A program made the position numbers and the translations under genes. 64,000 nt of DNA from Nemertoderma westbladi (Eukaryota > Animalia > Xenacoelomorpha), in contig JAUCBJ010008162.1 in assembly GCA_032718475.1 (NCBI GenBank), forward strand, positions 1 through 64,000, read 5' to 3'. The notes under the pieces were generated by a model. It ran no database searches. It saw only the letters and a list, made by a program, of their open reading frames with translations, and was not told the DNA's origin. Below, in pieces: positions 31,901 to 64,000 of the stretch. Position 1 is the stretch's first letter. Every line of letters begins with the position of its first letter.

Positions 31901-33165
31901 GCCCCCAATGCACCCAATGGGATCCCATTGAGAGACTGCTCTGTGGAAATCAGAATGGGTTCCGTAAAGGTCGTGGGACCATGGAGCCCATTTTGGAACT
32001 TAGAAGGATAATTTAAGAATTATCAAAAAAGAAAGACAGACATCTGGCTGTTATCTTTGTTGACTTCTTCAAGGCCTTTGATTCAGTATCACGTATGTTC
32101 AGCATACTCTCATTATATGGGATTCCTGATGAAATTATTGCAGCAATCAGATCAGTATACGATGGTTCGACAACATTTGTGTCTACTGTTGACGGTGACA
32201 CAGAACTATTTGAAGTGTTATGGGGCGTCCTCCAGGGAGACACACTTGCACCATTCTTGTTCATAATTGTTGTTGACTACGTTCTACGCATGTCCTTAGA
32301 TCATCATAATGGTGATGGGGTGATGATAACTCCACCTACTGGCTCCAGAAGTCGAGGAAATCCTGCCAAGTACCTAACTGATCTAGACTTTGCTGATGAC
32401 TTAGGAGTACTCTCAGAATCACTAGAAGGAGCCCAACGGCTCCTCAGCTCATTAGAACATGCTGCTTCTAGTGTTGGTCAATTAACACCAAAATGACCAA
32501 AATTTTGACATTTAACGTTGAAAGTCTTCAGCAAGTCTCTGACCGGATGAGCATAAGCTCAAAGGATGGTATGCTTGAGCATGTGGACGACTTCTGTTAC
32601 CTCGGATTATGGATACGGAAGTCAGTTGAGGACCTTCGAATACATAAGGGAAAGGCATGGGCAGCCTTTGGAAGTCACAGAGAATTAATCGGAAACTTAA
32701 GGTCCGATTATTTAGAGCAGCAGTATAGTTCCAGTTCTCCTCTATGGGAGTCCATGCTGGGCTCTAACTGCCGAGGACACCAAATCTCTGGATGGCACAT
32801 TCACAAGAATGCTACGCCGGGTTCATTGTGTCAAGTACAATGCACACATTTCCAACCAGACACTATATAACATTGGAGGTGTCTCATTGGTTCTACCAAG
32901 CTTGACACTAGAACAAAGTCGCCTCCGCTTTGCAGGACATTGCTTTCGCCGTGAGGACCAGCCAATGCATAATCTTGTGCTTTGGCGGCCTCATGGAGTG
33001 AATAAGCATGGTGGACATCACATGACTTTCTTTAGACGCATCTTAAAGGACACTGGCCTTGAAGATGCGGATGATCTAGCAAATGTCATGCAATGGCGGC
33101 GCAATTTTGTCGACAAGCCTGCACAGCATTCTTAAAAATGCAGCTGCAATGCAGCATGCCGATCC
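31901..33165 (+). mobile_element. Degenerate 5'-truncated RTE LINE (family 2)
   Basis: NQNGFRKGR, FVDFFKAFDS, GVLQGDTLAP, LDFADD and RLRFAGHC in frameshifted pieces. Closely similar to 49341-50709. Confidence 0.9.
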
Positions 33166-33333
33166 CCCACACCGAATATATAGGGATTTTAAACTATAGC
33201 TGAATTTTCTAAGATCATTAAGGTTAAAAGATAAGAGGACATTGTGAATATTACAATTGTAGTTTATTATTTTTCAAACTGTAATAATTATTGCCTTCTA
33301 AGTAACTTTATCAATAATTAATTTCTTTACATT

Positions 33334-42700: not shown

Positions 42701-43997
42701 GATGATAACCATCTTTATGTTAGACACCATATCCCAGCCACTGAGATCTTGCAGAGTGGACAGGGATGCCTTATAGTACTTTGATTCAATCGTGGATTGC
42801 CAACGTTTCATTATCCCAGATAATGTTAGCTTCATGTCATCCCCGTTCCCTAGCGAACAAGGATTCGGCTAACTCTGCGTCTATGAAGGTGCCCGTACTT
42901 CTGGTGTCCATTAAGGCATTTACCACAATGCTACTACTTCCCGCGTTGAGCTGGACTTGGAGCACAGGAAACTCTCTGACTCCTGCATCCTGAAATGACC
43001 GGGTGTTGGGATTGCTCTCATTTTTGAGACAATCTTCCAATGCGGGTTCCTCAGAGGTAAAGGCCTCATATACACTAACATGGTTACAGCATTCGTCGTC
43101 ATTTGTAAACTCTCCAGGGTAGAATTCATTCACTTCTTCATCGGATGAATCTGTCTCAAAATCAGTGAAGTGTACACGTGGGTCCACCTCTCCCTTCTGG
43201 ACCTGGTCTAGCTGTAGCAAGGGGTGATGAGAGCCTTGACATACCAGACACGATTTCGTGCCTATTAGGTGGCAGTCACGTCTCACATGTCCCAGTCTAA
43301 GACACAAGAAGCATGTCGACAAATCTTTAGCTGTCCATCGTCTCTCTTTAAGTGTCTTTTTTTATGAAGGTGTTATATTTCACGAGGGGGTGTGTGTCTA
43401 TTTTACAAAGAGGGCACTTGGCGTTTGTATTGTCGGTGGTAATTATAGGATGTTGTGTTCATCTTAGGTGCTATTAGCCTTGGGAGGAGGTATCATCCTA
43501 TTCGGCTTGCCCTGACCACCATGCTTCCTCTCACCTCTGGAGTTCACATCATCAGAATATATGTTTTTGCATCCCTCCGTGTCTGAACCAGAGTGATCAG
43601 AGGGACACTCTTCATAGTTGGTGACATAAGCGTATCATTTCTTGGTCGCTGTCTTATCAGTGGTTTTAGTGTCTGAACGGGTGCTTCTTTCCTGGTTTAC
43701 CATAATAAGATATATGGACGCTTCTGCCTTTAAGAAACCTCTAAACGAGTCCATATCGGGGAAGCATCTGTGTTTAAGTTTGTAATTATAAGTGTATCGG
43801 TCCCATCTGGTTCCAATGGAGCCCTTTGGGAGTGCACTGGAAACGAATTGTACTGTCATGGATGTATCATACACTTGTTTTTGTCCTAGCCAATCAAGTT
43901 GGTGGCAAATTTCCTCTTCCTCATCTCTAAACTCTACTATCTCACTTTGAGCAAATCTATTTTTAGAGATTAATCGATCCTACATATTGCGTGCTAG

Positions 43998-44106
43998 ATG
44001 TCATGGGTGATGGGGAGTTGTGGTGGTGCAATTTTGTCGATAAGCCGGTACAGCATTCTTAAAAATGCAGCTGCAATGCAGCATGCCGATCCTAGTAGTA
44101 GTAGTA
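43998..44106 (+). mobile_element. Short RTE family 2 3' fragment inserted in the gag of element D
   Basis: (TAG)n tail; TSD GTGCTAG at 43991-43997 and 44107-44113. Confidence 0.85.
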
Positions 44107-44258
44107 GTGCTAGGCTTTCTTCATCGCCATACCGCTCCTTTAGAGTATCCCAAACAGTATTTATGCCGTCCACATGGCCCACATATTTCGTGGCCATCTG
44201 TTTAGGGGGTTCTTCCAGACAACTAATCAAATATCTAAGCTTCTCACGAAATTCTCTC

Positions 44259-47200
44259 AAAAAAAAGAATATCAAAAGAATATCAACATATACTCCTTTC
44301 TTAAACATGTTTGATTTTTCCAATTTAAGTTTTCCAGTGGACAGAGTAACTGGTATTCCCCAGTTTCTGAAAGCAAACCCTTTATACTGTATAAACATTT
44401 TATATTGGAGTAATACAGAAGAACTGTCCATTCTAAGTCAACCAGATAGCGCACACTGTTCCGGTAAAACTGTACTAAATTTATTATTCATAGAAGCCAC
44501 AACCAAAAACCCCACCCACTACGTAGCTATTACTAACATAGATAGATTAATAAATACAAAAGATTCTCCTGGCAACAAGAAGCACTGTGAACGCTGTCTC
44601 CGAGCCTTTAACACTTACAAATCCTTGGAAGAGCATCGAGAACGCTGCTATACGGGTAAACGGCAACTCGAGTATATGCCCGAAAATCTCCTGGTTAAAT
44701 TTGATCGTTACGATAAGACTCTATCCCCACCTTTCTGTATATACGCCGACATTGAAACTATTCTAGAACCTACAGACAATATTAAACTCCCACAGAAACA
44801 GAAACATATAGCTAGCGCGGCAGCCTTTTATGCAGTACCAAATCAGAAATTAATTAACCCCCCTAAAACAGATGTTCAAATTTTCAGTGATGTAATGCGC
44901 GACTTTCCAACCACTCTGGAAAGTCGGGGTAGGGAGTTATACGATTGATCCATTTCTAGTACAAACACACTATGCAACTCACTAGTACCCAACAAAATGA
45001 CTTTAATAACACTACGCAATACTACGTCTGCAACTGTAATTTAACCCCTGATTCACATAAGTTAAACCTCAATGAAAATCTCACCACCAAAGTCCGCGAT
45101 CATGACCATTATAGTGGGGAGTATCGAGGGGCTTCTTGCGTTAGCTGCCACAGGAAACTATCACTATGACGAAATAATTTTTATATTTTTTTTAGCAAGT
45201 CGTTAGACTTGATTACTGTAAGAAAAAAGGCTACTTGCTACTGGCTACTGGCTACTGACTACTGAACTAGAGCAAAAACAGCTCTAACGATTTTGATGAA
45301 ATTTTGCATGGACCATGAAAATAGATTTCTATGGGTACTTGTGAAATCGCGGTTTAAATTGAAACATCTCAACTTGTTATAATAATAATATAATTGTTGC
45401 ATTTAATTAATATCGTGGCTTACATTGAACAGTGTAAATTGTTAATCGCGGTTTACATTGAAACTTCTATTACAAAAATAAGAACGAATTTGTCTTATCA
45501 CTTCTTGTGAGCGATTGTATTGAATTCATGACAACTGCTGTTATTATTATATTAATCAATTGGCACCTCGACTCCTCTCTGACTACTCTATCCCATAGAA
45601 CAAAATAATCATTTCGCTAACTGCTCTCTCTATCTTCAGTAATCACAACAGCTTTTATAATTCATTAGATGATTACAACATAATAATTATAGTTTGAAGT
45701 TGTCTATAAAATTTTTCGTACACCACCGGGACTACGCTCATGCTAATTTATTATCAGACTGAACAAAAAGCTTTTACTTGACTCGTACTGTCTCCTACGA
45801 CTTGCTTCACGGGGCGCTAGGCCCGTCTCTAGTTTATAACTTGAGAAAATTCTATATACATTTACTGTTAAAAGAAGGAATGACCAATAGTTCTAGAACA
45901 CACTGGAAAATGACTGTAATCCCGAAAAACAGTGAAACCTATATTCACCTTAAAGTTAGCTTTCCAATTGATCCAAGTACACCAACAGCCAACGCTAAAG
46001 AAAGTATCTCCATTAATTTTCTATATTCTTATCAATTTATGACTGCCAGCCTATATAATCTCAGTAGTTATCTCACTAAAAATAATAGTAACCTAGCAAC
46101 AGCCATACCCCATACACTAGCTCAAATGACCCAACTCTATCCGAACATTAGGGATAACACAATAAAAAATAAAGGCGTATTCCCATATTCTTACATTCAA
46201 AATATTTCAAACCTACACGAAACTACACTACCCTCAATAGAAAGCTTCTATAAGGATCTCAAATTGGAGCAATGCAGCACAAACAACTATCAGCGCATGC
46301 TTACTATTTGGGATGAATTAAGCTGCACAACAATCTTCGACTATATGATTGGCTATTTCATTCTAGATATTACCCTATTAGCTGGCTGATACTTTCGAGC
46401 AGTTCCGTTCCCTTTGTCTAACTAATTATGGACTCGAGCCCGTAATGTACTTCACCGAACCGGCGAGGTGCGACGTTAATTTACAACGCGGCGCTGAAAT
46501 TCACGGAATCAGAAATTCATTTATTATCAGATGCTTCCATCTACTCGGACTTTGAAACAAATATTAGGGCTGGTCTAGTGTTCTTCAATACACATTCCGT
46601 AGACGCAAATATTCCCGATAGACCCGACTACGATTCAGTCACCCTGAGAAATATCTAATACCTATCGATGCGAACAAACTTTACGGCTGTGCGCTGAGCC
46701 AGAAACTTCCCTACGCTAATATTAAACTCGTAACTAACTACCCCCATAGACCTAGCTACAGTAGATGCGAGTGGGGACACTGGTTATTATTGCATAGTTG
46801 ATCTACATTACCTGGAAGAAATTCATGAATGGACCACCGATCTGCCTCTAAGAGTGGAGAAGATGTCAGTCCCTAAATCCTTTCTTAGCAAATACATGGA
46901 ATATCTTTGGGAGCGCTACAATCTCACCGATACGGCTACCTGTAAACCATACAACGACACATGTACTAAGGTACTACTACATCAGTTTAATAAGGTTGAA
47001 TACGGTATCCATATTAAGCTACTTCAGCTCTATTTGAACCTCGGTCTTAATCTTACACAATTATATAGGGTCTACTCTTTCTCACAAAAATATATTTTCA
47101 AGGACTACATTAGTTTTAACACAAATAAAAGGCAAATGGCAAATAACCCATTCGAGGTTCTATTTTATAAGTTAATGAACAATTATGTGGGACAATTATA

Positions 47201-48026
47201 TGGGAAATGCCTTCAGAAGGTTAGAGATCGCGTTTCTTTCAGGTTATGCAATAGTGACGATCAATGTGATTTGCTCCTAGCTAAGCCCAATCATGAATCT
47301 TTTGTTGTCTTTACCCCCAACTTGAGCGGGCAAACATTCACTAAAGAGGCTGTTTGCCTAAATCAGGGCGTGTTCATCGGTTGCACTATACTAGATCTAT
47401 CTAAGCTACAGATGTACGACCTATTTTACAACAAATTGAAGCCTCTAGAACAAAAACTGGGTTGCCAGATTCGCTGTCTAGCTGGTGACACCGATTCTCT
47501 AAAGCTAAGCGTCACTAATACACCACAGCTAACCTTTCTACAGGCAATTTTTGAGGGTGGTTTCTTAGATACTTCCAACTATAGTACAACACATCCACTC
47601 TATACAATTAAAAATGAAGCGGCTCTCAGGTTCGTAAAAGATGAGAGCTGCGGTTTGTAGTATAAACAGTGGGTTTTCCTTAAACCAAAGGTTTACAGTT
47701 TTCAATCCTACGATGCCCCAATCAAGAAAACCGCCAAAGATGTATCTAGATCGGTTGTTGCTAAGCAACTATCATACGAGGATTATGAAGACTGTTTTGA
47801 AAACGAGGCAATGCTCTTCCGCTATATCTCTACCTTCACTTCTAGAAAGCATCAAATTTTTACTGGTCATGTCTATAAGAAAGCCCTAACACTGTGGGAC
47901 ATGAAATCATACTGGGGTAGTAAATATAGCAGCAAACCATACGGGCACTATAGCACTAAGCTCGTTAGACCGGCGAAACGAGTAGTATTCCCCCTATCAG
48001 AATTTAATTTAATTTTTCTAGAATAA
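44259..48026 (+). pseudogene. polB: Polinton/Maverick (adintovirus-like) protein-primed DNA polymerase B, degenerate
   Basis: FDFSNLSFPV, HYVAITNIDRL, HCERCL, PFCIYADIET (ExoI), VRDHDHYSGEYRGASC, FFYNLRKF.IH (ExoII), KGVFPYSY, DANKLYGCALSQKLP, FYKLMNN...LYGK, GDTDSL. Stops, frameshifts and one insertion. Confidence 0.9.
45193..45832 (+). mobile_element. Non-autonomous Helentron-type element inserted in polB
   Basis: Subterminal IR AGCAAGTCGT (45194) / ACGACTTGCT (45797), hairpin ACGGG...CCCGT, terminal CTAG, T-run target. Removing it rejoins FYIFF and YNLRKF. Confidence 0.75.
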
Positions 48027-49340: not shown

Positions 49341-50709
49341 CTACTACTACTACTAGGATCGGCATGCTGCATTGCAGCTGCATTTTTAAGAATGCTGTGC
49401 CGGCTTATTGACAAAATTGCACCGCCACAACTCCCTATCACCCATGACATTTGCTAGATCATCCGCATCGTCAAGGCCAGTGTCCTTTAAGATGCGTCTC
49501 AAGAAAGTCATGGGCTGTCCACCATGCTTATTCACTCCATGAGGCTGCCAAAGTACAAGATTATGCACTGGCGAAAGCAATGTCCTGCAAAGCGGAGGCG
49601 ATTTTGTTCTCGTGTTAAGCTTGGGGGAACCAATGAGACACCTCCAATATTATATAGTGTCTGGTTGGAGATGTGTGCATTATACTTGACACAATGAACC
49701 CGGCGTAGCTTTCTTGTGAATGTGCCATCCAGAGATTTGGTGTCCTCAGCAGTTAGAGCCCAGCATGGACTCCCAAAGAGGAGTACTGGAACTACTGCTG
49801 CTCTAAATAATCGGACCTTAAGTTTCCGATTAATTCTCGGTGACTTCCAAATCCTGGAAAGCCTATTCAAGGCTGCCCATGCCTTTCCCTTACGTATTCA
49901 AAGGTCCTCACCTGACTTCCGGATCCATGATCCCAGGTAACAGAAGTCATCCACATGCTCAAGTATACCATCTTTTGAGCTTATGCTCATCCGATCAAAG
50001 ACTTGCTGAGGACTTTCAAAGTTAACTGTCAAAATTTTGGTCTTTCTGGAGGTAATAAAAAGACCAACACTAGAAGCAGCATGTTCTAATGAGCTGAGGA
50101 GTCGTTGGGCTCCCTCTAGTGATTCTGAGAGTACTCCTAAGTCATCAGCAAAATCTAGATCAGTTAGGTACTTGGCAGAATTTCCTCGACTTCTGGAGCC
50201 AGTAGGTGAAGTTATCATCACCCCATCATCATTATGATGATCTAAGGACATGCGTAGAACATAGTCAACAACAATTATGAACAAGAATGGTGCAAGTGTG
50301 TCTCCCTGGAGGACGCCCCATAACACTTCAAATGGTTCTGTGTCACCGTCGACAGTAGACACAAATTTTGTAGAACCATCGTATACTGATCTGATTGCTG
50401 CAATAATTTCATCAGGAATCCCATATAATGAAAGTATGCTGAACATACGTGAGCGAGAGACTGAATCAAAGGCCTTGAAGAAGTCAACAAAGATAACAGC
50501 CAGATGCCTGTTAGGATGCCTTTCTTGGGAACTTGCACCAATTTATTTGTTTTCATTTCTTGTAGGACTCTTGTTGTTCGGTACATGTCTACTATGATGG
50601 GATAGATGAGCTTTAAACACTCAGGTATTTTAAAGACCTCAGGGGGAACACCATCTACTCCACTGGCACGATTGGTCTTAATGCTCTTTGCAGCAGCCTT
50701 CACTTCTGC
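49341..50709 (-). mobile_element. Degenerate RTE family 2 LINE, interrupted at 50709 by element E
   Basis: ASGVDGVPPEV, VDFFKAFDS, LQGD, FADD and LRFAGHC motifs; (TAG)n tail at 49341. Confidence 0.9.
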
Positions 50710-52000
50710 TGTTCGCGGTATTTCAACTTTCCATAACGCGAGTTGAATATTTTTGTATTTTTATTAAAATTGATTATTCCGATATTACTACTGGGTGCGG
50801 GACCATGGGTTTTGGGCACATTCAATAAACTGGGGGCGATTTATGGGCGAACTTTGGGGCAACTTACAGGGTACGGGAATAATTTCATAGTTATAAGGGC
50901 CAGGGGGGATGGAAAATGCAAGCAGTATTCAGGTTAGCCTGAGTACTATTAGGCCCTGGCCAACTTCCTGCTGCCTGTAGGGGTGGATTTGGTAATGTGC
51001 CAGGCCTAAAGGACAAGGACTGCCCTTAGCGGTCCCTGGCCAACGGCAGCTACTACGAGCCTGAAAAGGACTCGGAACGCTGACTGCTTGTGTCAGGGAT
51101 TTGCGACGGGCACCGACGGCCCCTTAGTAGCCAAGCCGTTCTGGTTCTCGATGATCGAACCCCGGGGTTCGTGAGGGGTGGAGCGGACACGCGAACAGGT
51201 GGCCAACTTAAGACTGCCCCCTGACCTAAGCCGTACTGGTTCTCGATGACCGATCCCTTCGGGGTTCGTGAGGGGTGGGACGGACATGCGAAAGGGCTGG
51301 CCACAGGACTGGTTTGACAAGGACTGCCCTTAGCGGTCTCGGGTCAACTGCAGCTACTACGAGCCTGAAAAGGACTCGGAACGCTGACTGCTTGACTGTG
51401 ATTCGCGACGGGAGCCGACGACAGACCCCTTAGCCAAGCCGTTCTGGTTCTCGATGATCGTTCCCTTCGGGGTTCGTGAGGGGTGGAACGGACACGCGAT
51501 GGGGTCGAAAGACAAAGGACTAGACTCGACTAGACTCTACTGGCCTACCGACTGTTCGGAGCAGTTTCTCGGCTGCCGAAGCGACTACGAGCCTGAAAAG
51601 GACTCGGAAAGCCTAGGTGGTTGGGTTTCTGTGATGAACTGACGGACCCCTAGCCAAGCCGTTCTGGTTCTCGATGATCGAACCCTTCGGGGTTCGTGAG
51701 GGGTGGAACGGACACGCGAACGGGTCCACCGACACGACAGACTCCTAGCCAAGCCGTACTGGTTCTCGATGACCGAACCCTTCGGGGTTCGAGAGGGGTG
51801 GTACGGATACGCGACAGAGTCTACCGACTGGACCGACCCTTAGCCAAGCCGTGCTGGTTCTCGATGATCGTTCCCTTCCGGGTTCGTGAGGGGTGGAACG
51901 GACACGCGACAGGGTCGACCGACACCGACACTACGGCACTAAGACTGGGACTGAGGGAAAATCTGGGGAACATTAGGTAGGCTAAAATTCTGAGCGAACA
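50710..52000 (+). repeat. 5' LTR of element E (right end uncertain, about 52000-52240)
   Basis: Starts TGTTCGC; the exact inverse GCGAACA ends at 52000, but no clear PBS follows. Contains internal repeat arrays. Confidence 0.75.
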
Positions 52001-52580
52001 GCGGGTTATTAAATAATATACCGTAGGGATTTATATTATCGTGTATACTTATTGTGAATATTTGGTGTATATTGATTTGGGGAAGCCCAAAATTATTCTT
52101 AATCAGGTTTGAACAGGTTTGAACAGGTTTCAACAGGTTTTCAACTATAGGAAGTTACATTAAAGAGTATATCCAACTAATGCAGCTTTTCTCAACCGCA
52201 AACTTGCATCTTAGAAATATTCCCTCCCCACAATCAATATCCGGTGACTGGCCGGGGCTCGGTGGTCTGTTAAGTCACGTCTCCAGCATCGGCGTTTTTC
52301 CCCCTGGTGTAGGAATAACGGCAACAAAATTAAGAATAATTCACGTGGTTAATTTTGACAGGGTGTCAAAATTAAGAATAATTATCGCGGTCAACTTCAA
52401 CTGGTGGAAGTTGAGAATCCTTCAATACTCTTCAAAAACTCTCTACGTGCTTGCCAGCACCCACTACGAGGAAACTCTGGTATTTGAGTTGAGACAAAGT
52501 CGTGGTTTAATTAATCAGCAAACTCGATCTAACCAACTCGTAGTCGGCAGATCACAATTCGGGAGAGTTGTTAACAGGGA

Positions 52581-52772
52581 ATGGAAGTATCGATCACACC
52601 CATTGATATAATTCAAGTTGAGCCAGGAATCTGGCACGTCGAAGTTGAGGTACAAGGAACGAACGTTGGACGATTCAGGATTACTGTTCGGGTGGTCCAA
52701 GCTGAGTACAATACCTACGAGGAACTGTTTTACGACATCGCGTATCTCGCCATCGACGAGGCGTTACAATGA
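52581..52772 (+). CDS. 63-aa upstream ORF overlapping the gag start (ATGA)
   Basis: Its TGA stop overlaps the gag ATG at 52769-52772; protein-like composition. Confidence 0.35.
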   Translation: MEVSITPIDIIQVEPGIWHVEVEVQGTNVGRFRITVRVVQAEYNTYEELFYDIAYLAIDEALQ

Positions 52773-55700
52773 CCACAAATAACATATCCGATACCGACGA
52801 GATGGATCACCACACAGACTCGGAAGCCGACGAGGTCCCAAACGTCAAGAACATGACCCGTCGGTTAGGGGCTCTTAAAGGCGGAGTAACCCGAGCGTAT
52901 CAACGGATGGAGAAACAACTCAAGGGAGTCAAAACCCCCCTCAACGAGGTACAAACTCAGCTTCAAAGTATCCGAAATATCCTACAGCGGTACGAAAGAA
53001 TGATACAGGCGTACCAAGAGCTCGTTCCTCCCACCGATCAGGAAAACTACCCCAAGCTGGAAGAACACGTTGTACATCTAGATGGGTTCCGCAAACAACA
53101 CCGAAGGACCCTCAGCCTGGTGAGAGGCTATGAGGAACAGTATTACAAGAGGGCTGAAAGAACAGACGCGGAATCAGTACGATCCTCCAGCATCAGGACA
53201 GGAGTACATCACAAGAGAATGGGGTCCACCAGAAATCAGCACTCCAGCGCTAGGAGCGAGATATCCGGCTCAGCGCGCAGTTCTCAAGGGGCGCCGCCAC
53301 TCCGAGACCAACTGAGAGAACGGAAGGCATTAGCCCTCAAAGCTCGGATGGAAGATGAGTATATTCAACTGCAAGCCGAGCAAGATGTACTAGCCGCCGA
53401 AACACAAAGGCGAGAAGCCGAACAAGCGGCCGAACGACAGGCGGAACAACGCGAACAGGAGGCCGAACAACATAGACGAGAGGCCGAACGACAGGCGGAA
53501 CAACGCAAACAGGAGGCCGAACAACGCGAACAGGAGGCCGAACAACATAGACGAGAGGCCGAACGGCAGGCCGAACAACGCAAACGGCAGGCCGAACAAC
53601 ATAGAAGAGAGGACGAACGACAGGCCGAACAACGCAAACAGGAGGCCGAACAACGCGGACGAGAGGCAGAACGAGAGATCGAACAACGTAAATGGGAAGC
53701 GGAAATGCGTAAACAACACGCCGAGGCCCAAGCAATTCTCATCCACAAAAAGAATGCGGATATTGCAAAACTCGCAGAATACGAAGCCGCACTTATCGAA
53801 CGAGATATTCAACTCTACGAGGACTGGGAAAGGGATATAGATCAGGAATATGAACCAATTCCGGTACCGGAGTTAGAAAAGTCATTTACACCAACAGCGG
53901 CGAAACCTCCGAAACCCGAGATCCCGCCTACCAAACAGTCTACGCTATCGGCACAAGCCCCGGTGTTCCATCCCCCACCAGCTACGCTAAAGAATGAGGA
54001 ACCTTATTTCCCATCCAACACCACGACAGCGAGTGTACCCAAGTACGAGCCTGAAAAGGACTCGGAACGGGACGCCACTCCCCGATCAAATAACCCGTTT
54101 ACATCGACACCACAAACTCGTAGCCGCGTCATTATTAAAACTCCACCTATTATTGATCCATCAAGTATGGGAGTGAGTGCCAATAACTATAACCCTCCGA
54201 GTCACTCCAGTTCAGATGACGTCAGCATCATCCGGGCGTTGGAGAACCGCCTTGCCATGCCTAAGATGGAGATTCGCACCTTCGAAGGAGATCCCGTCGA
54301 TTACCTCAGATTCAAGAAACGGTTCTTCGCGCAGATTGGATCAACGGACATAGCCGACGCACAGAAATTGGTATATTTATCGCAATACCTGGGTGACAAA
54401 CCACGCAGAATTGTTGCATGTTTTGAAGGAGGTTCTCATGAGGCATACTATGATGCATGGAAAACTCTGGATAAAAGATACGGAAATACCGGAACTATAA
54501 TTAATAAAACTCTAGAGAGACTGATACAGGACGCGGGATCACTAGGAGACCCACAGAACATACAGGAATTCTCCGACTCTATGAAGGATGCCTACTATAC
54601 TCTGAAACCCTTGAATAAGGAGGACCAGGTGAACAACATTCTAAACCTCCGACAGATCGCCCGGAAGTTCCCCGGATGGCTACAAAGTAAGTGGGCTTAT
54701 AAATGTGTAGACCTCCGGCGCAGACATCCAGATCGAGATCCTAGCTTCCTTGAGATGTCGGCATTCCTGGACGATATCTCCGAAGCCATGAATGACTCGA
54801 TGTTTTCCAAACAAAGTCTCGCAAAGTTGGACGGAATAGAGAGCAACTCCAGGAGTAAGATAACCCCTCCGAAACCAAGATTCCGACCCCCACCGGTGAG
54901 TACGATGGCCATCACCATGGCTGAGGATTCCGACGACGAAGACTACGAGGAACCGACATCCGCCGAGGAATGGGCATGTTATCTCGCGAATTGGGCACCC
55001 GAAAGGGAAGGCATCACAAATTCCCTGCTCTGTCTCTTCTGTGGGGAGAAACATAAAGTGGAATTCTGCAGAAAGTTTCAGTTCGCCGACCTCGTCCCAC
55101 GCTTCGAGGCGATAATGAAACACCGAGGATGCTTCCGGTGTCTTGGAACAGGTCACTACGTTCGGGATTGCGACCAAAGGTCGTGCTGTGCTGTCTGTAA
55201 CGACCAACGCCATCACACGCTCCTCCACATCCCCGCGAACTTCGATTTTACTACCCTCCCCTTTCGGATCGAAGCCAAGCGAAGAGGAGAAACAAACCAC
55301 GTCTTCAAAGGAACCCGGACAACCCAACGGAGAGAAACCAACCCGTTTAAAATCTCCACCAATACACCACAAGTAACAAATATTTCGGCCACGATTAATC
55401 TTATAAATCGCCGCTACATGGTTTTCGCAAAGGTAATCCCAGTAAGGATCCAAGGAGTCGGCAAATCTTTGACGACACTCGCGTTCCTCGATAACGGGTC
55501 CGACGGAACCATCATCGACCGGGATTTTCTCGAGCAACTCGGACTAGAATATGAACCTTGTAAACGGCCCATACAAACCATCACCGATAACAGAGAGGTA
55601 GAGTCCGGGGAGGTGCAACTCCAGATGGAAGGAGTGATGAAGGGCTACGAAACGGCTAAGTTAACCATAAAGAACGCCTTGGTACACACAGACCTCCGGG

Positions 55701-58700
55701 TGCGGTTCCGACAATCAGCCGAGTATGCCCCCCTCATACAATTGGACCGGGACGATGTAGACCTGAGGTGCCCGCAGTTGGACGTAAACCGTATCACCCT
55801 ACTGATCGGACTCGATACACCGGAACTACACATCCCAACCGGAGATATCGCCCGATCTATAAACCAGGATGACGGATTTTATGCTGAACGAACAATAATG
55901 GGATGGACACTCTGCGGCATTAAGGAGGAAACTACGGACACCTATACCTACCTTCCCAAATGTCAGATTAAAGAGAATGTAATCTCCGTGGGTTATTGCT
56001 CAGCTTCGGATCTTGACGAGGATTTGTTTCTGGAATCCGAGAAAACTCAACGAGAGATGACGAAATATTTTAATTTGGAGACCCAGGAGTTCGCGGAAAA
56101 GGACGAAAACCCATCCGAAGAGGACCAATATTGCATGGACGTTCTCGACCAGGCCACGTTTAAAGACGGACATTGGTGTTCACCTATGTTATGGAAGGAT
56201 CCAAACAAACCAATGGCAAACAACGCCAGCATGGCACTTAAACGACTTAAAGGGATTCTACGCCGGCTGAATGACCAACCTGAAATAAAGGAGAAATATA
56301 ATACCGTAATCCAAGGATATCTCGATGATGGATTAGCAGAAATGGTACCACGGAATGAACTGCAAGGTGGTAAAAGAACATATTATCTCCCAACCCACTA
56401 TGTAGTAGAAGCCCGCAAAGGGGGGAAAATCCGAGTGGTAAATGATGCTGCCGCTATGTACCAGGGCGAATCCCTAAACAGTCAACTTTACACGGGACCC
56501 AACATATATAGCACACTCATCGGCGTATTGATCAGGTTCAGGGAAAACCGGGTAGCATTTACCTGTGACATCAAGGCCATGTTTCATCAAGTTCGTACGT
56601 TACCAAAAGACTCGGACTGTCTACGTATCCTATGGACGGATAAAACGCTTACTCAACAGGAGATTAGCCAACTCACGATACGGGACGTAGACGTAATGCG
56701 TATGGTCGTCAGGATCTTCGGCGCTAAGGACTCGCCGGTAGCATGCAGTGACATGCTAAAGAGGACGGCAACTATGTGCGAAAACGAGTTCCCTCCAACC
56801 GTCATAGAAACCATTCGACGATGTTTCTACGTGGACGACGGATGCGCCGGCGCGGATAACGTGGATGAGGCATATCGGCTAGCAATGGGGATGGTGGAAT
56901 GTCTAAAGAAAGGAGGGTTTCCGCTCGTAAAGTTCAGATCCCATGACAAAACACTTATGGAAAAGTTTCCGGAGGACATCCGGCTGGAAGATAACAAAAT
57001 GTATTCGGAGGATGTAGAACATCGTGTACTTGGGATTGAATGGGACATAGAATCAGACGAATTCATCTTCAAGTATAAACCCCTAACCAAGCCTATGACA
57101 AAAAGGGGATGTCTGTCGATAAAAAGTGCAATCTTCGACCCACTGAATTTCATATCTCCAGTAACCTTGGCCGGAATGAACCTGATTAAGGAAATGTGGA
57201 TAGAAGGACTGGGATGGGACGAAGAGCTCCCCCCATACCTTAGCGTCAAATGGAGAAAATGGACGGAGCAGCTCGAACACCTACATCTTATGCGAATACC
57301 TAGACCGTTCTTCCTCGATAAACTGCCCACCGATATCTTCCAGCTCCACACCTTTTCGGATGCTTCAAATACCGGAATCGGCGTAGTAACCTTCTTACGG
57401 AGACTAAGTAGCGATGGAAACGGCGATACAAGTTTCTTATTCTCCAAAGCAAAGACAGTATCCGGGGAATTCGTAGCAACGATTCCGAGACTCGAGCTAC
57501 AAGCTGCAGTTTGGGCAGTAAGACAGAATCGCATGGCCATGCGGAACCTACGGATCCCCATAGAATCTCAACACTTCTGGGTAGATTCGAGTATAGTTCT
57601 TTATTATCTCCACTCTCCATCACGGCGTCACACCACGTTTGTTGCAAACCGAGCCACGGAGATTAAACAATGTACCGGCCGAGAACAGTGGCATCACGTG
57701 AACGGGAAGGAAAATCCAGCGGACTTATCAAGCCGAGGCGCCACCCCAAAACAACTCGGTAAGAGTAAACTCTGGCTTACAGGCCCGGAATTCCTACGGC
57801 AGCCACAATTAACATGGAGTACCCGATTCGACCCCGAGCTCGATAGCGGAAAATACTCCGAGGACGACAAAGAAATCCGTAAAATCCATCGAAGCAACGC
57901 GGTGGAAATTTATAGTTGTCTGACTGAGCCTGCAAAGGACTCGGGCAGGCACTATAACGTCGCGACGATCACTCAACTAGCGACGTCTTTACATCGGTTG
58001 ATCGAGCGAACTTCATCCATGAGACGGCTCGTCCACCACGTTATAACCCTTCGCAACTTCCTACGGTGGAAAAACAACAAACCGATAGTTCAACGGAATA
58101 TACAAGAACTCATCATTGCGGAGAAGTGTATTGTTAGATATGTCCAGAAAGAAAGTTTCCCCGATGAATGGGAACAACTTAGTGCGGGCAAAACGTTGAA
58201 ACCGGACAGCCCAGTCTACCAACTGAGACCAATGATGGGAGAGGACGGACTGATCCGACTGAATACCCGGATGGCAAACGCCCCGGTCGACTATGAGATT
58301 AAATACCCGGCGCTTCTGCCCGGAACGTCGACACTAGCTAAGCTATTAATTCTACAATGTCACGAGGACAACCACCACGCAGGACAGAATTGGATTATAG
58401 CCAATATAAGACAAAGATATTGGATCACCCACATCCAGCCACTGATCCGGAAAGTGTTGAAACGTTGCTTCACCTGCAGACGTTACCTAGCGCCACCAAT
58501 CACCCAAAAGATGGCCGACTTACCAGCCACCCATCTACAAGCGGACTCCCCACCATTCTACGTCACCGGAGTGGACTGTTTCGGACCGTTCACGGTTATT
58601 GAACGACGATCCAACATCAAATGCTGGGGAGCCATCTTCACCTGCCTAAGATCTAGGGCAATTTACCTAGATATCGTGGTAAATCTGACACAACACGCAT

Positions 58701-59530
58701 TCATCAACGCTCTGCGTCGGTTCGTGGCGAACAACGGGACATGTCGCCACATGTATTCCGATAATGGTACAAACTTTGTGGGAGGAGAAAGAGAACTTAG
58801 AGAGGCGATCGAGGGATGGTTTACCGATAACACCGCATCCCAAGTCTGGAAGGAACACCAGATACAGTGGCACTTCCAGACCCCCCTAGCACCCCATACA
58901 AGCGGGGTATGGGAGAAACTGATCGACCTAGTGAAACGGTCCATGCGCGTCGCTCTAGGCGATACCCGGGTAACCCATGACACCCTCCGCACAACATTCT
59001 GCGAGATCACGGCTACCCTGAACAACCGACCCATTGTTCCTATCCGCGACGACCCCACAGACCTGGAACCCCTCACTCCTAACCACTTACTGGGGAGACC
59101 CAAAACCCACCTCCTCCCGGAAACCATGTTCCCGGATCCCAACGAGATCGCAAAACATACAAACTGGAAAAAGGCCCAAGCGTTGGCAGCGCATTGGTGG
59201 AGGATTTGGGCCCAGGAATATCTCATAACCCTCCGGACCAGGAGGAAATGGAACAACACCCACCGGAACGTCGCAGTTGGCGACATGGTACTAGTTAGAG
59301 AAGATCTCAAAGACCGCGTTCACTGGCCTGTGGCGCGGGTCGTGACCATACACCCAAGCAAAGACGGACTTGCGAGGACTGTGACGATACGAACGAAAGC
59401 GGGCCACTACCAACGCCCCATCCAGAAGCTGTGCCTTCTTGAAGGCAATGACAGTGGTGATTCTACAAGAGGTGATAAGTTCCCTACGGATCCTACTGTG
59501 GACATTGGTGACAATGACAAATGCGTTTAA
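52769..59530 (+). CDS. gag-pol: Bel-Pao Gag-Pol polyprotein, 2253 aa, single ORF
   Basis: Coiled coil, DUF1759-like core (FEGDPVDYLRF), three knuckles (CLFCGEKHKVEFC, CFRCLGTGHYVRDC, CAVCNDQRHHTLLH), protease LDNGS, RT YVDD, Pao-type RNase H (FSDAS, IPRLEL, WVDS, NPADLSSRG), integrase (HHAG...CFTC, GVDCFGP, SDNGTNF, GVWE) and a DUF5641-like tail. Confidence 0.97.
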   Translation: MTTNNISDTDEMDHHTDSEADEVPNVKNMTRRLGALKGGVTRAYQRMEKQLKGVKTPLNEVQTQLQSIRNILQRYERMIQAYQELVPPTDQENYPKLEEHVVHLDGFRKQHRRTLSLVRGYEEQYYKRAERTDAESVRSSSIRTGVHHKRMGSTRNQHSSARSEISGSARSSQGAPPLRDQLRERKALALKARMEDEYIQLQAEQDVLAAETQRREAEQAAERQAEQREQEAEQHRREAERQAEQRKQEAEQREQEAEQHRREAERQAEQRKRQAEQHRREDERQAEQRKQEAEQRGREAEREIEQRKWEAEMRKQHAEAQAILIHKKNADIAKLAEYEAALIERDIQLYEDWERDIDQEYEPIPVPELEKSFTPTAAKPPKPEIPPTKQSTLSAQAPVFHPPPATLKNEEPYFPSNTTTASVPKYEPEKDSERDATPRSNNPFTSTPQTRSRVIIKTPPIIDPSSMGVSANNYNPPSHSSSDDVSIIRALENRLAMPKMEIRTFEGDPVDYLRFKKRFFAQIGSTDIADAQKLVYLSQYLGDKPRRIVACFEGGSHEAYYDAWKTLDKRYGNTGTIINKTLERLIQDAGSLGDPQNIQEFSDSMKDAYYTLKPLNKEDQVNNILNLRQIARKFPGWLQSKWAYKCVDLRRRHPDRDPSFLEMSAFLDDISEAMNDSMFSKQSLAKLDGIESNSRSKITPPKPRFRPPPVSTMAITMAEDSDDEDYEEPTSAEEWACYLANWAPEREGITNSLLCLFCGEKHKVEFCRKFQFADLVPRFEAIMKHRGCFRCLGTGHYVRDCDQRSCCAVCNDQRHHTLLHIPANFDFTTLPFRIEAKRRGETNHVFKGTRTTQRRETNPFKISTNTPQVTNISATINLINRRYMVFAKVIPVRIQGVGKSLTTLAFLDNGSDGTIIDRDFLEQLGLEYEPCKRPIQTITDNREVESGEVQLQMEGVMKGYETAKLTIKNALVHTDLRVRFRQSAEYAPLIQLDRDDVDLRCPQLDVNRITLLIGLDTPELHIPTGDIARSINQDDGFYAERTIMGWTLCGIKEETTDTYTYLPKCQIKENVISVGYCSASDLDEDLFLESEKTQREMTKYFNLETQEFAEKDENPSEEDQYCMDVLDQATFKDGHWCSPMLWKDPNKPMANNASMALKRLKGILRRLNDQPEIKEKYNTVIQGYLDDGLAEMVPRNELQGGKRTYYLPTHYVVEARKGGKIRVVNDAAAMYQGESLNSQLYTGPNIYSTLIGVLIRFRENRVAFTCDIKAMFHQVRTLPKDSDCLRILWTDKTLTQQEISQLTIRDVDVMRMVVRIFGAKDSPVACSDMLKRTATMCENEFPPTVIETIRRCFYVDDGCAGADNVDEAYRLAMGMVECLKKGGFPLVKFRSHDKTLMEKFPEDIRLEDNKMYSEDVEHRVLGIEWDIESDEFIFKYKPLTKPMTKRGCLSIKSAIFDPLNFISPVTLAGMNLIKEMWIEGLGWDEELPPYLSVKWRKWTEQLEHLHLMRIPRPFFLDKLPTDIFQLHTFSDASNTGIGVVTFLRRLSSDGNGDTSFLFSKAKTVSGEFVATIPRLELQAAVWAVRQNRMAMRNLRIPIESQHFWVDSSIVLYYLHSPSRRHTTFVANRATEIKQCTGREQWHHVNGKENPADLSSRGATPKQLGKSKLWLTGPEFLRQPQLTWSTRFDPELDSGKYSEDDKEIRKIHRSNAVEIYSCLTEPAKDSGRHYNVATITQLATSLHRLIERTSSMRRLVHHVITLRNFLRWKNNKPIVQRNIQELIIAEKCIVRYVQKESFPDEWEQLSAGKTLKPDSPVYQLRPMMGEDGLIRLNTRMANAPVDYEIKYPALLPGTSTLAKLLILQCHEDNHHAGQNWIIANIRQRYWITHIQPLIRKVLKRCFTCRRYLAPPITQKMADLPATHLQADSPPFYVTGVDCFGPFTVIERRSNIKCWGAIFTCLRSRAIYLDIVVNLTQHAFINALRRFVANNGTCRHMYSDNGTNFVGGERELREAIEGWFTDNTASQVWKEHQIQWHFQTPLAPHTSGVWEKLIDLVKRSMRVALGDTRVTHDTLRTTFCEITATLNNRPIVPIRDDPTDLEPLTPNHLLGRPKTHLLPETMFPDPNEIAKHTNWKKAQALAAHWWRIWAQEYLITLRTRRKWNNTHRNVAVGDMVLVREDLKDRVHWPVARVVTIHPSKDGLARTVTIRTKAGHYQRPIQKLCLLEGNDSGDSTRGDKFPTDPTVDIGDNDKCV

Positions 59531-59799
59531 ACCCTTCTCATCATGTTGACAAACTCTTTTTAACTGTGATTTATCGACAACGAGTTATGGACCCCCCTTA
59601 AACCAACTGTAACCACGCAATGGTATTTGTGTTTCCTCGTGTGTTATGTGGAGTCCAGCATCACCCTGCAGATGTTTCGACTGACGCAGGGTCGTTTATG
59701 CATTGTTTACCCTGATTTTGGTCATCAGGACCTACGATATTGGATTATTGGAAATGGAAAAGATTTGAAGTGGAATTCATTGTATTCATTGCAGTATGT

Positions 59800-60230
59800 T
59801 ATGTTGTCCGTTGCGTGCGCAGTTCGGGGCGTAGGCGGTGTAACGAGTCCAGCTGTAGATCCCGGATTGCCGCGCAACACCCCCTCTATCCCGTTATTCT
59901 GGTGGGTCCATGGTGCATCCACGTGACTTCGACGATAGAGGGTTTTATGTTTCTCAGTCGCGTTATTCTGGTGGGACCGTTGCGTGGATTTTGGGGCGTA
60001 GGCGGTGTAACGAGTCCAGCTGTAGATCCCAGAATGTTGCGTAACCCCATCCCACATGACTTCGTCGACTGAGCTTTATGTTGTTGGGAGTGTTATTCTG
60101 GTGGGTCCCTGGTGCACCCACGTGACTTCACTCCTAGCGTCTTCATTGTCCGTTACGTGCGCAGTTTGGGGCGTAGGCGGTGTAACGAGTCCAGCTGTAG
60201 ATCCCAGATTGCCGCGTAACACCCCTTCCA
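59800..60230 (+). repeat. Three ~170-bp repeats in the pol-ORF2 spacer
   Basis: Identical core GGGGCGTAGGCGGTGTAACGAGTCCAGCTGTAGATCCC at 59826, 59993 and 60168. Confidence 0.9.
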
Positions 60231-60771
60231 CGACAAAGATTAACCAAAGAAAATGATTCAATATAGTTGGAAATGATGAAAAGGATCAGACAACTCTGCT
60301 ATAAACCCGAATGATGACGCGTATACTGATGAAAATGTAATGATGCGCACCCTGGTGCTGCGCTTATAACAATGATGATAGCCGGGGGGCTATAAACCCA
60401 ATGATGATGTGGAAATAAATAAATGTGAAATAAATGGTGGAACTAAATGTTGAAATATATGTGGAAATAAATGAGATGAGATGAAATAATAATGAAATGA
60501 AAAAAGACAAAAAAAAGGTATAAAAGAGGTCAAAGAAAAGAATTGGAAAAAAAGGACAAAAAAGTCATAAAAAACTGGTTGGATATTATGTATAGCTATA
60601 GTAACTGTAAATGCTGAATGTATTAGCAATAAGATGATAGATGCCTATATAGCAATGTTATTGAATAAACTGAATTAAATAAAAAACTGAATTATTCTGC
60701 TATCGCTATAGTTTCAGACTTTCTGGACTTATAATTAACTGAACTAATTTGTAACGGATATAATCGTAAAT

Positions 60772-63372
60772 ATGGACCCAAATCGCCAAATTATCGGCGA
60801 ATTACGTAACACGGTAGATCTACTGGAATATTCGCAACCCGGATCCCCTGACTTTGATACAAATTGGAACATTCTGCTAAATGAGAACGTACGAGAAATT
60901 AAATTCACCGGGCGAGAGGGACCGGATTCTAAGAATCTACGAGCCCTCCAGTTAGCCGATGCTACTACGAGCCTGAAAAGGACTCGGAACGCAAAGGCAA
61001 CCGGAGGGGACGATTCGTCGTTTTGGGAAACGTTCCGGCAGAGCGTCTACAGATCCCGATGTTTGATCTACGACAACGAGGGAAACGCGACGCCCACCTC
61101 GAAGGCGATTACGTTGGCGAGATGTCAGAGCTTCGTCGACGACAAGAGTACGTACCTCGCCCACTGGGGAAACTTGTCGGAGTGTACGGCGACGCTTCGA
61201 GAGGAACGCGTATCGATTATCCAAAACCGCGACGACTACCAGGAAAAGTACGGGGCGAAAGAATACGGTCGATCCTTAGTCGTCGTCCTCGGAACCCTGG
61301 ACGGTTTGGTACTGGTGTGCCGAATATTCCCGACACCCAGACATGAAGTGCAGGCAGCCGGAGCGATCTGGTTGCTGCCTACGGATATCCAAAAGATCCT
61401 CTTCGACTTCGACGTCATTAAAATCGGGTCGGATATCAAGGCGGACGTCCGGAACGATTACGCGAACGCTCCCGCAGGAAGAAACCGACGAAACGACCTC
61501 AACGCACTTAGCCATTGCATCGATACTCAAACGCTGCTAGCCTGGTTACGATTCGCCGAGTTCATGCGAGGATTCCAAGAAGTGAGACCGACGAAATCCG
61601 GAATCGGCTACCTCGCTGTGCTCAACGGCGGTATCGACTTCAAACCCCAGAAATTCCGGGACTATAATAAAATATACGGCGGATACCCGGGATTAGAGAT
61701 AAAGAGCGAGCGAGAGGGTCGATGGAAGGACGTCGATCGGAAGTGGACGATACACCAAAGGTGGGAGAATCCCGATCGACGGAGCTATATCTACGTCGTT
61801 ATGGAATGCTACACCGTCGCTAAGTTTATCTGCAAGACTCTAGATAACCTCATCAAGGCGGTCCCCCTTTCCTTCGTCGACTACGACTGGAACGAGGTTA
61901 TAAACCACGCGTTTAAAGCGGTCGAGAACATTACACCGGGAGAATCGAAAACGCCCGCCGTTATCGAATCCTGGGACGAGAGCGGACCTTACGATATCCC
62001 TACGATTACCGAACTTCTCGGTGCGGAGGAGCCTCTGATCTCCTCGGAAGGGGAAGAGATATGGCTAAACGAGGGTGTTCTACTCTCCACCCCGAAGCGA
62101 CAACTCGAACCGGAGGCCGCGTACGGACCGGCCGCCAAACGGGTTGCCTCGGCCGAACCGATAAAGAGAGCAGGCGTCTACACCCCACGCGGCTCCGGTA
62201 GCCCCGCGAGAGAGGTAGCCACTACGGCTGCATTGAGCGACTTCGGCGACATATGCCAACGGTTATCCCCGTATCCTTTCCCGGGTGGCGAAGATTGGTC
62301 GTCGGAGATCCCGAGTACCAGCCACCTACGGACCCGCTCAGCGATACTGGTCGAGGAGGGACCCAGCGATGCGCCGACACCCGATGATCTCCTCGGTATC
62401 CCTCCGTCGAAAACCCCGGCACCTCTTCGCCGACCAGCGGTAGCTACTACACCCGCCGTTCCTCAGGACCCTATGCGACTAACCCGTTGGTACGCCGAGC
62501 AAACTGAATGGATCCACCGCCAGAAACGGTCGTCCGAGTTGAGACCATCGGGACATAACGAGGGTTATCGGAGCGAAAACATACTACGCAAGAGCCCAGC
62601 ATTCCGCGGGCTACCGACCACCGAGAATATTCCGAAGAGCGACCGACGACTCGAATACTACGCCGGCGTTCCGATTCCGATATTCCCCGGTCGGGAGATG
62701 CAGTTGGAGGTATGCGACGACTGCGGTTCGGAGCAGTGCCCACGCAGCAGAAGGAATCGGGTTACCGATTCTTGCCTCCAGCTCCTTGGGATACTCTATT
62801 GCCCATACTGCGCGATATCGGGCCACGACGTTTCGGTCTGTCCGATCCTTTATAACCTCTGCACCACGTGCGGTTTCCGTGGACATTCCGCTAGCCCCCG
62901 CTGCTATATTAAATGTCCAACCAAAGACGTTACCGCTATGGGCAATATGGTCATGTTTGAGACATACGCAAACAGCCATTTAAAGACCAAGTTTCGGAGA
63001 AACGCTCGGAATATTGCGCAGGAGATGGCGTGCGGATATTTCTCCTTCCCGGAACGCCTCCACACGTCGGCCTCGCTACCCTTCCATTACGTGGATCTGC
63101 TACTGAGCGCCGGATTATTCGGTCCATTCGAAGTTATTAGACGATTATATTCGTATAAAGAGGAGTTCGGTGACGGAGAATGGTTCCTAGAGGCACGCAA
63201 CTCCGAGTTGGAAAGACGAACCGACATGATCCCGATGCCTTCGAAAGGAAGAGCCGCCAGGAGACAAGCCGAAGCGTTACTCACGATGGATGTTGACGCT
63301 CCTCTACCAGCCATAGCGATCGATGAGAGTCGACGGGCGAAGAGACGGAAGGCGTACCAGAAAAAGAAATAA
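60772..63372 (+). CDS. 866-aa ORF2: WRN/EXD/Mut-7-like DEDD 3'-5' exonuclease domain, disordered linker, CCHC zinc-knuckle cluster
   Basis: ExoI IYDNEG (D101/E103). LPTDIQKILFDFDVIKIGSDIKAD (ExoII D225) fits the WRN-type LP..L..LL.D..I.KVG..I..D pattern, followed by CIDTQ. ExoIII IYVVME (Y341/E345). Knuckles CDDC...CPYCAISGHDVSVCP...CTTCGFRGH...C. Confidence 0.8.
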   Translation: MDPNRQIIGELRNTVDLLEYSQPGSPDFDTNWNILLNENVREIKFTGREGPDSKNLRALQLADATTSLKRTRNAKATGGDDSSFWETFRQSVYRSRCLIYDNEGNATPTSKAITLARCQSFVDDKSTYLAHWGNLSECTATLREERVSIIQNRDDYQEKYGAKEYGRSLVVVLGTLDGLVLVCRIFPTPRHEVQAAGAIWLLPTDIQKILFDFDVIKIGSDIKADVRNDYANAPAGRNRRNDLNALSHCIDTQTLLAWLRFAEFMRGFQEVRPTKSGIGYLAVLNGGIDFKPQKFRDYNKIYGGYPGLEIKSEREGRWKDVDRKWTIHQRWENPDRRSYIYVVMECYTVAKFICKTLDNLIKAVPLSFVDYDWNEVINHAFKAVENITPGESKTPAVIESWDESGPYDIPTITELLGAEEPLISSEGEEIWLNEGVLLSTPKRQLEPEAAYGPAAKRVASAEPIKRAGVYTPRGSGSPAREVATTAALSDFGDICQRLSPYPFPGGEDWSSEIPSTSHLRTRSAILVEEGPSDAPTPDDLLGIPPSKTPAPLRRPAVATTPAVPQDPMRLTRWYAEQTEWIHRQKRSSELRPSGHNEGYRSENILRKSPAFRGLPTTENIPKSDRRLEYYAGVPIPIFPGREMQLEVCDDCGSEQCPRSRRNRVTDSCLQLLGILYCPYCAISGHDVSVCPILYNLCTTCGFRGHSASPRCYIKCPTKDVTAMGNMVMFETYANSHLKTKFRRNARNIAQEMACGYFSFPERLHTSASLPFHYVDLLLSAGLFGPFEVIRRLYSYKEEFGDGEWFLEARNSELERRTDMIPMPSKGRAARRQAEALLTMDVDAPLPAIAIDESRRAKRRKAYQKKK

Positions 63373-63528
63373 TGGATTGGGATATTCCAGGAACATTTAT
63401 CGAACATTTATTTTTATACAAACTCTAGGCCATATTAATTAAAACTATGCAATATTAAATTTGGGATTTTTTATATTGGGAATGACCTACGCAAACTCAA
63501 TCGACCGACAGACTTCACGAAGGTCATT

Positions 63529-63536
63529 GGGGGGGA
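63529..63536 (+). other. Polypurine tract
   Basis: GGGGGGGA, one base before the 3' LTR TGT. Confidence 0.8.
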
Positions 63537-63537
63537 C

Positions 63538-64000
63538 TGTTCGCGGTATTTCAACTTTCCATAACGCGAGTTGAATATTTTTGTATTTTATTAAAATTGA
63601 TTATTCCGATATTACTACTGGGTGCGGGACCATGGGTTTTGGGCACATTCAATAAACTGGGGGCGATTTATGGGCGAACTTTGGGGCAACTTACAGGGTA
63701 CGGGAATAATTTCATAGTTATAAGGGCCAGGGGGGATGGAAAATGCAAGCAGTATTCAGGTTAGCCTGAGTACTATTAGGCCCTGGCCAACTTCCTGCTG
63801 CCTGTAGGGGTGGATTTGGTAATGTGCCAGGCCTAAAGGACAAGGACTGCCCTTAGCGGTCCCTGGCCAACGGCAGCTACTACGAGCCTGAAAAGGACTC
63901 GGAACGCTGACTGCTTGTGTCAGGGATTTGCGACGGGCACCGACGGCCCCTTAGTAGCCAAGCCGTTCTGGGTCTCGATGATCGAACCCCGGGGTTCGTG
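63538..64000 (+). repeat. 3' LTR of element E (partial)
   Basis: Matches 50710-51173. Confidence 0.97.

Follow-up and report, generated by a model that had tools for sequence, protein, structure and literature searches.

The window is a 64,000-nucleotide stretch of Nemertoderma westbladi contig JAUCBJ010008162.1, read on its plus strand. Its last part is a complete-looking long terminal repeat (LTR) retrotransposon, which lies on the plus strand, begins with its 5′ LTR at position 50710 and carries a third open reading frame (ORF3) behind gag-pol. The element has the following parts.

50710..52125, plus strand: 5′ LTR, starting with TG; its end is inferred at a GAACA at 52115 or 52125
52769..59530, plus strand: gag-pol, a single ORF of 2253 amino acids, of Bel-Pao type by its Pfam domains
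60772..63372, plus strand: ORF3, 866 amino acids with no internal stop, comprising an exonuclease-like domain, a long linker, a zinc-knuckle domain and a basic tail
63529..63536, plus strand: polypurine tract (G7A), directly before the 3′ LTR
63538..64000, plus strand: 3′ LTR, located by LTR comparison, starting with TG and running off the window end

The gag-pol frame contains Peptidase_A17 (Pao-type), DUF1759 (gag), DUF5641 (integrase tail) and Integrase_H2C2, all above the Pfam cut-offs, and by this set the element belongs to Bel-Pao. The LTRs are identical at 462 of 464 columns over the 463 nucleotides of the 3′ LTR inside the window; as these visible parts differ by only one mismatch and one gap, the insertion is young. 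The end of the 5′ LTR was sought among several GAACA candidates, which are the inverse of its TGTTC start; we recognized no clear primer-binding site near the presumed end. A 10-nucleotide tandem repeat occupies this end (52104–52145). ORF3 sits between gag-pol and the polypurine tract, the slot of an env gene. The initial annotation had reported an intact 866-residue sense ORF here, between near-identical LTRs, and we find the same coordinates, frame and LTR match.

Relatives of ORF3 were sought among 1.84 billion protein representatives, and metagenome contigs were scanned with zinc-domain patterns. The protein search returned seven relatives, all unnamed or 'hypothetical', which have a Cys/His-rich domain in common and of which five also have the N-terminal domain. 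The contig scan yielded 10 loci from 245 matched stretches, and no further relatives came from word-indexed protein searches, a first metagenome scan or a viral scan. A full Bel-Pao gag-pol lies directly upstream of the ORF3 relative at four loci (L004, L005, L007 and L009) and the end of a Bel-Pao pol at two others (L003 and L010), so the suspected linkage to Bel-Pao pol holds at 6 of the 10; three of the remaining four begin no more than 80 nucleotides from the ORF3 relative. The window, L004/L005 and L007/L009 represent three lineages with pol identities of 27.5–30.4%, and L001, L003 and L010 form a fourth, grouped by ORF3. Its linkage to pol in such distant lineages makes ORF3 a long-standing partner of Bel-Pao pol, whether by inheritance or by exchange. 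Trees of the exonuclease and zinc domains contain one supported branch each and resolve no origin or donor.

Some related loci differ in layout. In L001 (8165–11145) and L003 (6118–10615) the ORF3 relatives lie between decayed direct repeats (76% and 87%, respectively) with little or no pol, and these may be non-autonomous elements that retained ORF3. In L006 (3–3485) the exonuclease and zinc domains end a 1161-residue frame whose preceding ∼650 residues match nothing in Pfam. In L007 and L009, gag and pol share one frame that is split by a single stop codon (3131–3135 and 1576–1580), which suggests read-through.

The window protein is divided as follows, where ExoI, ExoII and ExoIII denote the catalytic motifs of the DEDDy fold and PSSM a position-specific scoring matrix.

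61012..61083, plus strand: candidate relocated ExoI (residues 81–104), a predicted helix followed by a strand ending in D101-x-E103, located by PSSM
61180..61245, plus strand: first strand of the domain (residues 137–158), which precedes ExoI in relatives, located by its match to theirs
61261..61857, plus strand: DEDDy exonuclease core (residues 164–362) with D225 (ExoII) and Y341 and E345 (ExoIII, Y-x3-E)
61858..62691, plus strand: Pro/Ser/Glu-rich linker (residues 363–640), unalignable among relatives
62713..63141, plus strand: zinc domain (residues 648–790) with three knuckle-type sites (648–715) and a conserved F-E-x2-A...T...G-Y/F-F segment
63331..63369, plus strand: basic C-terminal tail, recognized from sequence

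A profile built from nine relatives, with the window protein excluded, matches residues 158–362 at 57.7 bits (E = 6.5e-20), and the ORF3 of L009 by itself passes Pfam PF01612 (26.1 bits, cut-off 23.6). Profile A9, which combines the window domain with eight relatives and of whose nine members three match PF01612 at E ≤ 1, finds human EXD2 (PDB ID 6k17) as its best PDB match (E = 8e-6), spanning the first strand, ExoI and ExoII with the motifs in register. The next matches are not significant (Egalitarian, E = 0.16; 7C45, 0.28; 7C42, 0.37); Egalitarian also appears in another profile search, again not significantly (E = 0.039). A feature search of the ESM Atlas placed 24 of 30 matches in PF01612 clusters (best score 0.93). 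Among the nine relatives, seven have the ExoI D-x-E, six an Asp in the D225 column and seven a Y/H-x3-D/E; in one of the two alignments behind these counts ExoIII is out of place for three rows. By profile comparison, residues 164–362 are a member of the EXD2/RNase D-type DEDDy 3′–5′ exonuclease family, as the initial annotation had proposed at the level of the superfamily. Its motif residues are all present, and D225, Y341 and E345 align with ExoII and ExoIII; D101 and E103 lie off the ExoI position. The WRN/Mut-7 likeness it had suggested did not survive: the nearest solved relative is EXD2; WRN, Mut-7/Nibbler and EXD1 are absent among the six PDB matches of A9 at E ≤ 1, and no Pfam domain corresponding to the WRN or Mut-7 companions (helicase; Mut-7 N- and C-terminal domains) was found in ORF3.

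We find no signal peptide in ORF3 (the N-terminal hydropathy peak is 0.43) and no similarity to viral fusion proteins in Pfam, NCBIfam and PDB searches. A caveat to the absence of a transmembrane segment is the Kyte-Doolittle mean of 2.08 for residues 168–186, averaged over 19 residues. This sole hydrophobic stretch aligns with the two strands that follow ExoI in the relatives and in EXD2, and is therefore probably a β-hairpin of the exonuclease rather than a membrane anchor. Judged by its sequence, ORF3 is not an envelope gene, in agreement with the initial annotation.

In the relatives and in EXD2, the domain runs from the first strand through a helix and the ExoI strand to the hairpin. The first strand of the window protein, whose best match lies at residue 145 (13 bits, reached by 16 of 2000 shuffles), leads almost directly into the hairpin, and the ExoI D-x-E is absent at the family position. 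The distance from the first strand to a conserved LP motif is 57 residues, compared with 77–90 in five relatives; about 20 residues including ExoI are lacking, and the match of the nine-relative profile starts after ExoI. A deletion specific to one copy was considered as the cause and rejected, as no insertion is listed at this place among the copies described below and an X4 contig spans 60400–61472. This arrangement is common to the family of copies and is not the lesion of one of them. About 45 residues upstream of the first strand lies D101-x-E103, the only D-x-E before residue 801, which is preceded by a predicted helix in both low-confidence AlphaFold models. A PSSM of the relatives' helix plus ExoI ranks D101 first in the whole ORF at all three block sizes, with a score within the range of left-out true members.

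The C-terminal knuckles of the initial annotation are three sites. One site follows the strict CX2CX4HX4C pattern (677–690) and a second is near-canonical (697–711); the first (648–668) has cysteines and no histidine. Conservation within the family is highest in the knuckle pattern and the F-E-x2-A...T...G-F-F segment, a ranking that is partly by choice, since the related loci were found via this domain. Residues 648–790 form a family-specific domain. The knuckles of relative P0002 match a retroviral nucleocapsid protein (HIV NC, E = 1e-4), and an ESM Atlas search with the zinc domain returned leads only, all under 0.9. The linker is likely disordered. Basic tails are also found in P0002, P0004 and P0006, and that of ORF3 is possibly a nuclear localization signal.

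Six public runs from four studies contain the stretch or part of it, and contigs of four runs were mapped on 60400–63530. Of 274 differences, 40 were listed, and 32 of these fall in ORF3. In a tally that counts each listed site singly and is not a dN/dS, 18 of the 32 are synonymous and 14 are replacements, compared with an expected synonymous share of 23.5% (P = 7e-5), and 21 are at third positions. None of the 12 small indels listed (19 in all) lies within ORF3. The ORF3 frame is kept under purifying selection among the copies in the public runs. By region, the listed synonymous and replacement changes stand at 2:6 (residues 1–80), 7:1 (81–163), 4:3 (164–362), 7:3 (linker), 0:1 (zinc domain) and 3:1 (tail). 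Between 61021 and 61140 six differences are listed, every one at a third position and five of them synonymous; neither the D101 nor the E103 codon carries any of them.

The missing ExoI strand is central in the DnaQ/RNase H fold. Because of this, and because D225, Y341 and E345 are kept and residues 81–163 are constrained, we favor a segment swap, that is, a permuted domain with an intact active site via D101 and E103, as the somewhat more probable arrangement; a catalytically dead exonuclease domain in the window copy is a serious possibility, to which we give less weight. The earlier assignment of D101-x-E103 thus holds for the residues as such; as an ExoI motif they score weakly and stand out of order with respect to the nine relatives.

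The element also carries repeated RNA structures on the plus strand.

60965..60989, plus strand: 25-nucleotide GAAA hairpin in ORF3, identical to LTR copies
51118..51925, plus strand: six ∼95-nucleotide stem-loop units in the LTR, which fold better than shuffles on the plus strand
59804..60228, plus strand: three ∼83-nucleotide structured repeats in the pol-ORF3 spacer (59804, 59971 and 60146; z = −2.6 for the first copy)

The 25-nucleotide hairpin recurs identically in the 5′ LTR (51053, 51357 and 51585) and 3′ LTR (63880), and with one mismatch in gag (54043), where it is read in a different frame from the ORF3 copy; six matches compare with zero expected. As it recurs inside both gag and ORF3 in different frames, this points to selection on the RNA, and the hairpin is a candidate protein-binding or packaging signal. 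No copy of the element's hairpins turned up at the 10 related loci. The pattern of the ∼95-nucleotide units appears again in the 3′ LTR (63945–64000). These units contain a GAU-GA-U/U-GA pattern open to interpretation as a box C/D-like kink-turn. We rejected this reading: the pattern is 93.9% paired with one compensatory change, no better than shuffles (243/500), the minimum-energy structure falls in a different register, and covariation lacks significance. Between the ∼83-nucleotide repeats and ORF3 lies an AT-rich stretch with several TATAAA, and the two together may form an internal promoter, splice or translation signal. Rfam gave no match at E ≤ 1 within 50600–64000, and a tRNA search gave none.

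We read ORF3 as a conserved accessory gene of a Bel-Pao group, likely an RNA 3′-end trimmer with knuckles and a permuted active site, and put the probability of this reading at about 0.55. The segment with D101 and E103 would fold back into the vacant slot of the central strand and complete the set D101-E103-D225-Y341-E345. The knuckles may supply RNA binding, by analogy with the RNase D of Trypanosoma brucei (TbRND), and would grip single-stranded RNA while the DEDDy domain trims its 3′ ends. As presumed substrate we place small or tailed RNAs of the host ahead of the element's own RNA; small RNAs of host silencing are a tentative choice, and the element's own RNA or primers an unlikely one. 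As ORF3 is optional, separately encoded and variably active, it would be an accessory player in a conflict between element and host rather than a core step of reverse transcription. The most specific version, in which an undescribed old Bel-Pao group encodes a TbRND-like anti-silencing nuclease that trims PIWI-interacting, small interfering or tailed RNAs with a permuted ExoI, the hairpins maybe being its own binding sites, is rather improbable as a whole. Were small RNAs the target, a retrotransposon would here encode a suppressor of the genome defense of animals, and catalysis by D101 and E103 would mean that the DEDDy fold had been rewired naturally.

Several observations weigh against this assignment. 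ORF3 alone finds nothing significant in direct Pfam, NCBIfam and PDB searches, including no match to PF01612, so that the homology comes through its relatives. Both AlphaFold models are of low confidence (predicted local distance difference test scores of 31.8 and 43.8), and a Foldseek search with the model gave no match at E ≤ 0.001, EXD2 appearing at ranks 10 and 14 (E = 2.5–3.2). ExoIII ends in Glu instead of Asp, which also holds for P0002 and P0004. The PSSM scores at D101 are weak, being reached by 191, 981 and 1036 of 2000 whole-ORF shuffles, and a 24-column hidden Markov model (HMM) of the ExoI block misses D101, although it recovers ExoI in eight of the nine relatives when these are left out. 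Four low-depth contigs have internal deletions or replacements within ORF3, L001 contains 8.5 kb upstream of its ORF3 relative with no pol, and the linker of ∼280 residues compares with 28 in TbRND. In the family, the catalytic set is missing in two of nine relatives, and P0005/P0009 and P0008/P0010/P0011 show the zinc domain only, which argues that cutting is not universal; P0003 has two zinc-domain copies and a decayed exonuclease.

The catalytically incomplete and knuckle-only relatives, the ∼20 residues missing at the family position and the failure of the short HMM at D101 would also suit a pseudo-nuclease adaptor. Here the lineage would have lost ExoI, D101/E103 would be coincidental, and ORF3 would bind RNA with no cutting, like Egalitarian, EXD1 and Maelstrom, for example by recognizing the repeated hairpins of the element and so serving transport, protection or packaging. 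Egalitarian is the second PDB match, if not a significant one, Maelstrom and EXD1 are named as inactive DEDD derivatives in PMC5408684, and the 25-nucleotide hairpin has six copies, located in the LTRs, gag and ORF3, with different frames in the two genes. We nevertheless consider such an adaptor unlikely: D225, Y341 and E345 are kept, loss of the central strand calls for a replacement, residues 81–163 are constrained, and the hairpins, missing from the 10 related loci, show no tie to ORF3 over Gag. The exonuclease could instead help replication inside the particle, where it would proofread or trim cDNA 3′ ends or process primers. EXD2/WRN-type domains can act on DNA (PMC5408684), the DEDDy domain of Dada transposons is proposed to process 3′ ends (PMC3706591), and the knuckles resemble a retroviral nucleocapsid. 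However, ORF3 is separate and unfused to pol, the exonuclease profile found no second ORF3 copy beside the window's other Bel-Pao relics, and knuckle-only and dead relatives exist, all of which makes this role improbable. That ORF3 is a host gene recently captured and of no use to the element fits the pol-less layout of L001; it is very improbable given the two-domain gene behind pol in lineages as distant as those above, the purifying selection among copies, and the finding that, the TbRND analogy aside, no cellular family with the exact domain pair appeared in Pfam or PDB matches. The conserved trimmer with a permuted site accordingly remains our preferred reading, and its two-domain design yields a testable biochemical model in TbRND, with natural active, dead and knuckle-only versions offered by the family.

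Elsewhere in the window, the insertion splits a minus-strand relic of a long interspersed nuclear element (49898–50709, reverse transcriptase-like motifs by eye), and a similar relic lies at 32017–32496. Broken Bel-Pao-type relics with DUF1759 and DUF5641 occupy the minus strand at 2–2065, 7881–15163 and 42066–43361. A 561-codon frame (33322–35007) combines a hydrophobic stretch near its N-terminus with cadherin-like repeats, for which the Pfam Cadherin match (E = 2.9e-5) stays below the cut-off; by this frame the host is an animal. Broken frames at 43998–47660, which have no Pfam match at E ≤ 0.01, resemble by eye the relic of a protein-primed DNA polymerase, which we take to be Polinton-like.

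Bel-Pao (Belpaoviridae) elements with an env-like third ORF occur. They share with the window element the gag-pol domain set and the position of the extra ORF; ORF3 differs from their third ORFs in that it lacks a signal peptide and a membrane anchor and does not resemble fusion proteins. Captures of env have been summarized (PMC5718144). EXD2, whose exonuclease domain (6K17) belongs to the PF01612 family (DNA_pol_A_exo1) that includes WRN, Mut-7, EXD1 and Egalitarian, is the solved protein that the family profile matches best. No other part of EXD2 is present in ORF3, the window ExoI is displaced and ExoIII is Y-x3-E, and the two are not orthologues. TbRND (7C42 and 7C45) is, like ORF3, a DEDD 3′–5′ exonuclease followed by C-terminal CCHC fingers, and both ORF3 domain profiles match it weakly and not significantly (E = 0.28–0.54). 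TbRND is an enzyme of the cell that has four fingers and a linker of 28 residues, whereas ORF3 has three sites, a linker of ∼280 residues and an extra conserved segment; we treat the likeness as an architectural analogy. In the TbRND report, the zinc-finger domain is required for RNA binding and for efficient 3′ trimming of guide RNAs, and its authors call the pairing of an exonuclease with CCHC fingers very unusual (PMC7797062). In Dada DNA transposons, a transposon-borne DEDDy domain is likewise described, inserted within a DDE transposase (PMC3706591).

The closest precedent comes from bdelloid rotifers. The Juno, Vesta, TelKA and Mag clades of LTR elements are Ty3/gypsy-like. Rodriguez, Kenefick and Arkhipova (2017) described a DEDDy ORF3 in the rotifer LTR elements Juno and Vesta and in Terminons, and the elements of that study are assigned to these clades and not to Bel-Pao (PMC5408684). 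A DEDDy ORF3 in the env position of LTR retrotransposons was thus already published, where the initial annotation knew of no description of the architecture; reviews have since restated it. Like the window gene, the ORF3s of Juno, Vesta and Terminons are separate third ORFs after pol, show no env features, are DEDDy-type and have an altered acid set, DEED in the rotifer proteins versus D-E-D-E or DEDD here (PMC5408684). The passages of that study on ORF3 mention only a Cys-His-Cys motif, in Vesta2/5, and no triple-knuckle domain, and they propose roles in RNA 3′-end processing and silencing with no selection or activity data (PMC5408684). For a Bel-Pao element with an exonuclease ORF we found no description in the open literature, and Repbase or Dfam may hold one. 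New here are the nuclease ORF3 in the Bel-Pao superfamily, the pairing of an exonuclease with a triple-knuckle domain and the unusual order of the catalytic motif. Taken together, our analysis adds a second LTR superfamily to the rotifer elements as carriers of a nuclease gene in the env slot, and in this superfamily ORF3 is old and kept by selection, a point beyond the reach of the rotifer study.

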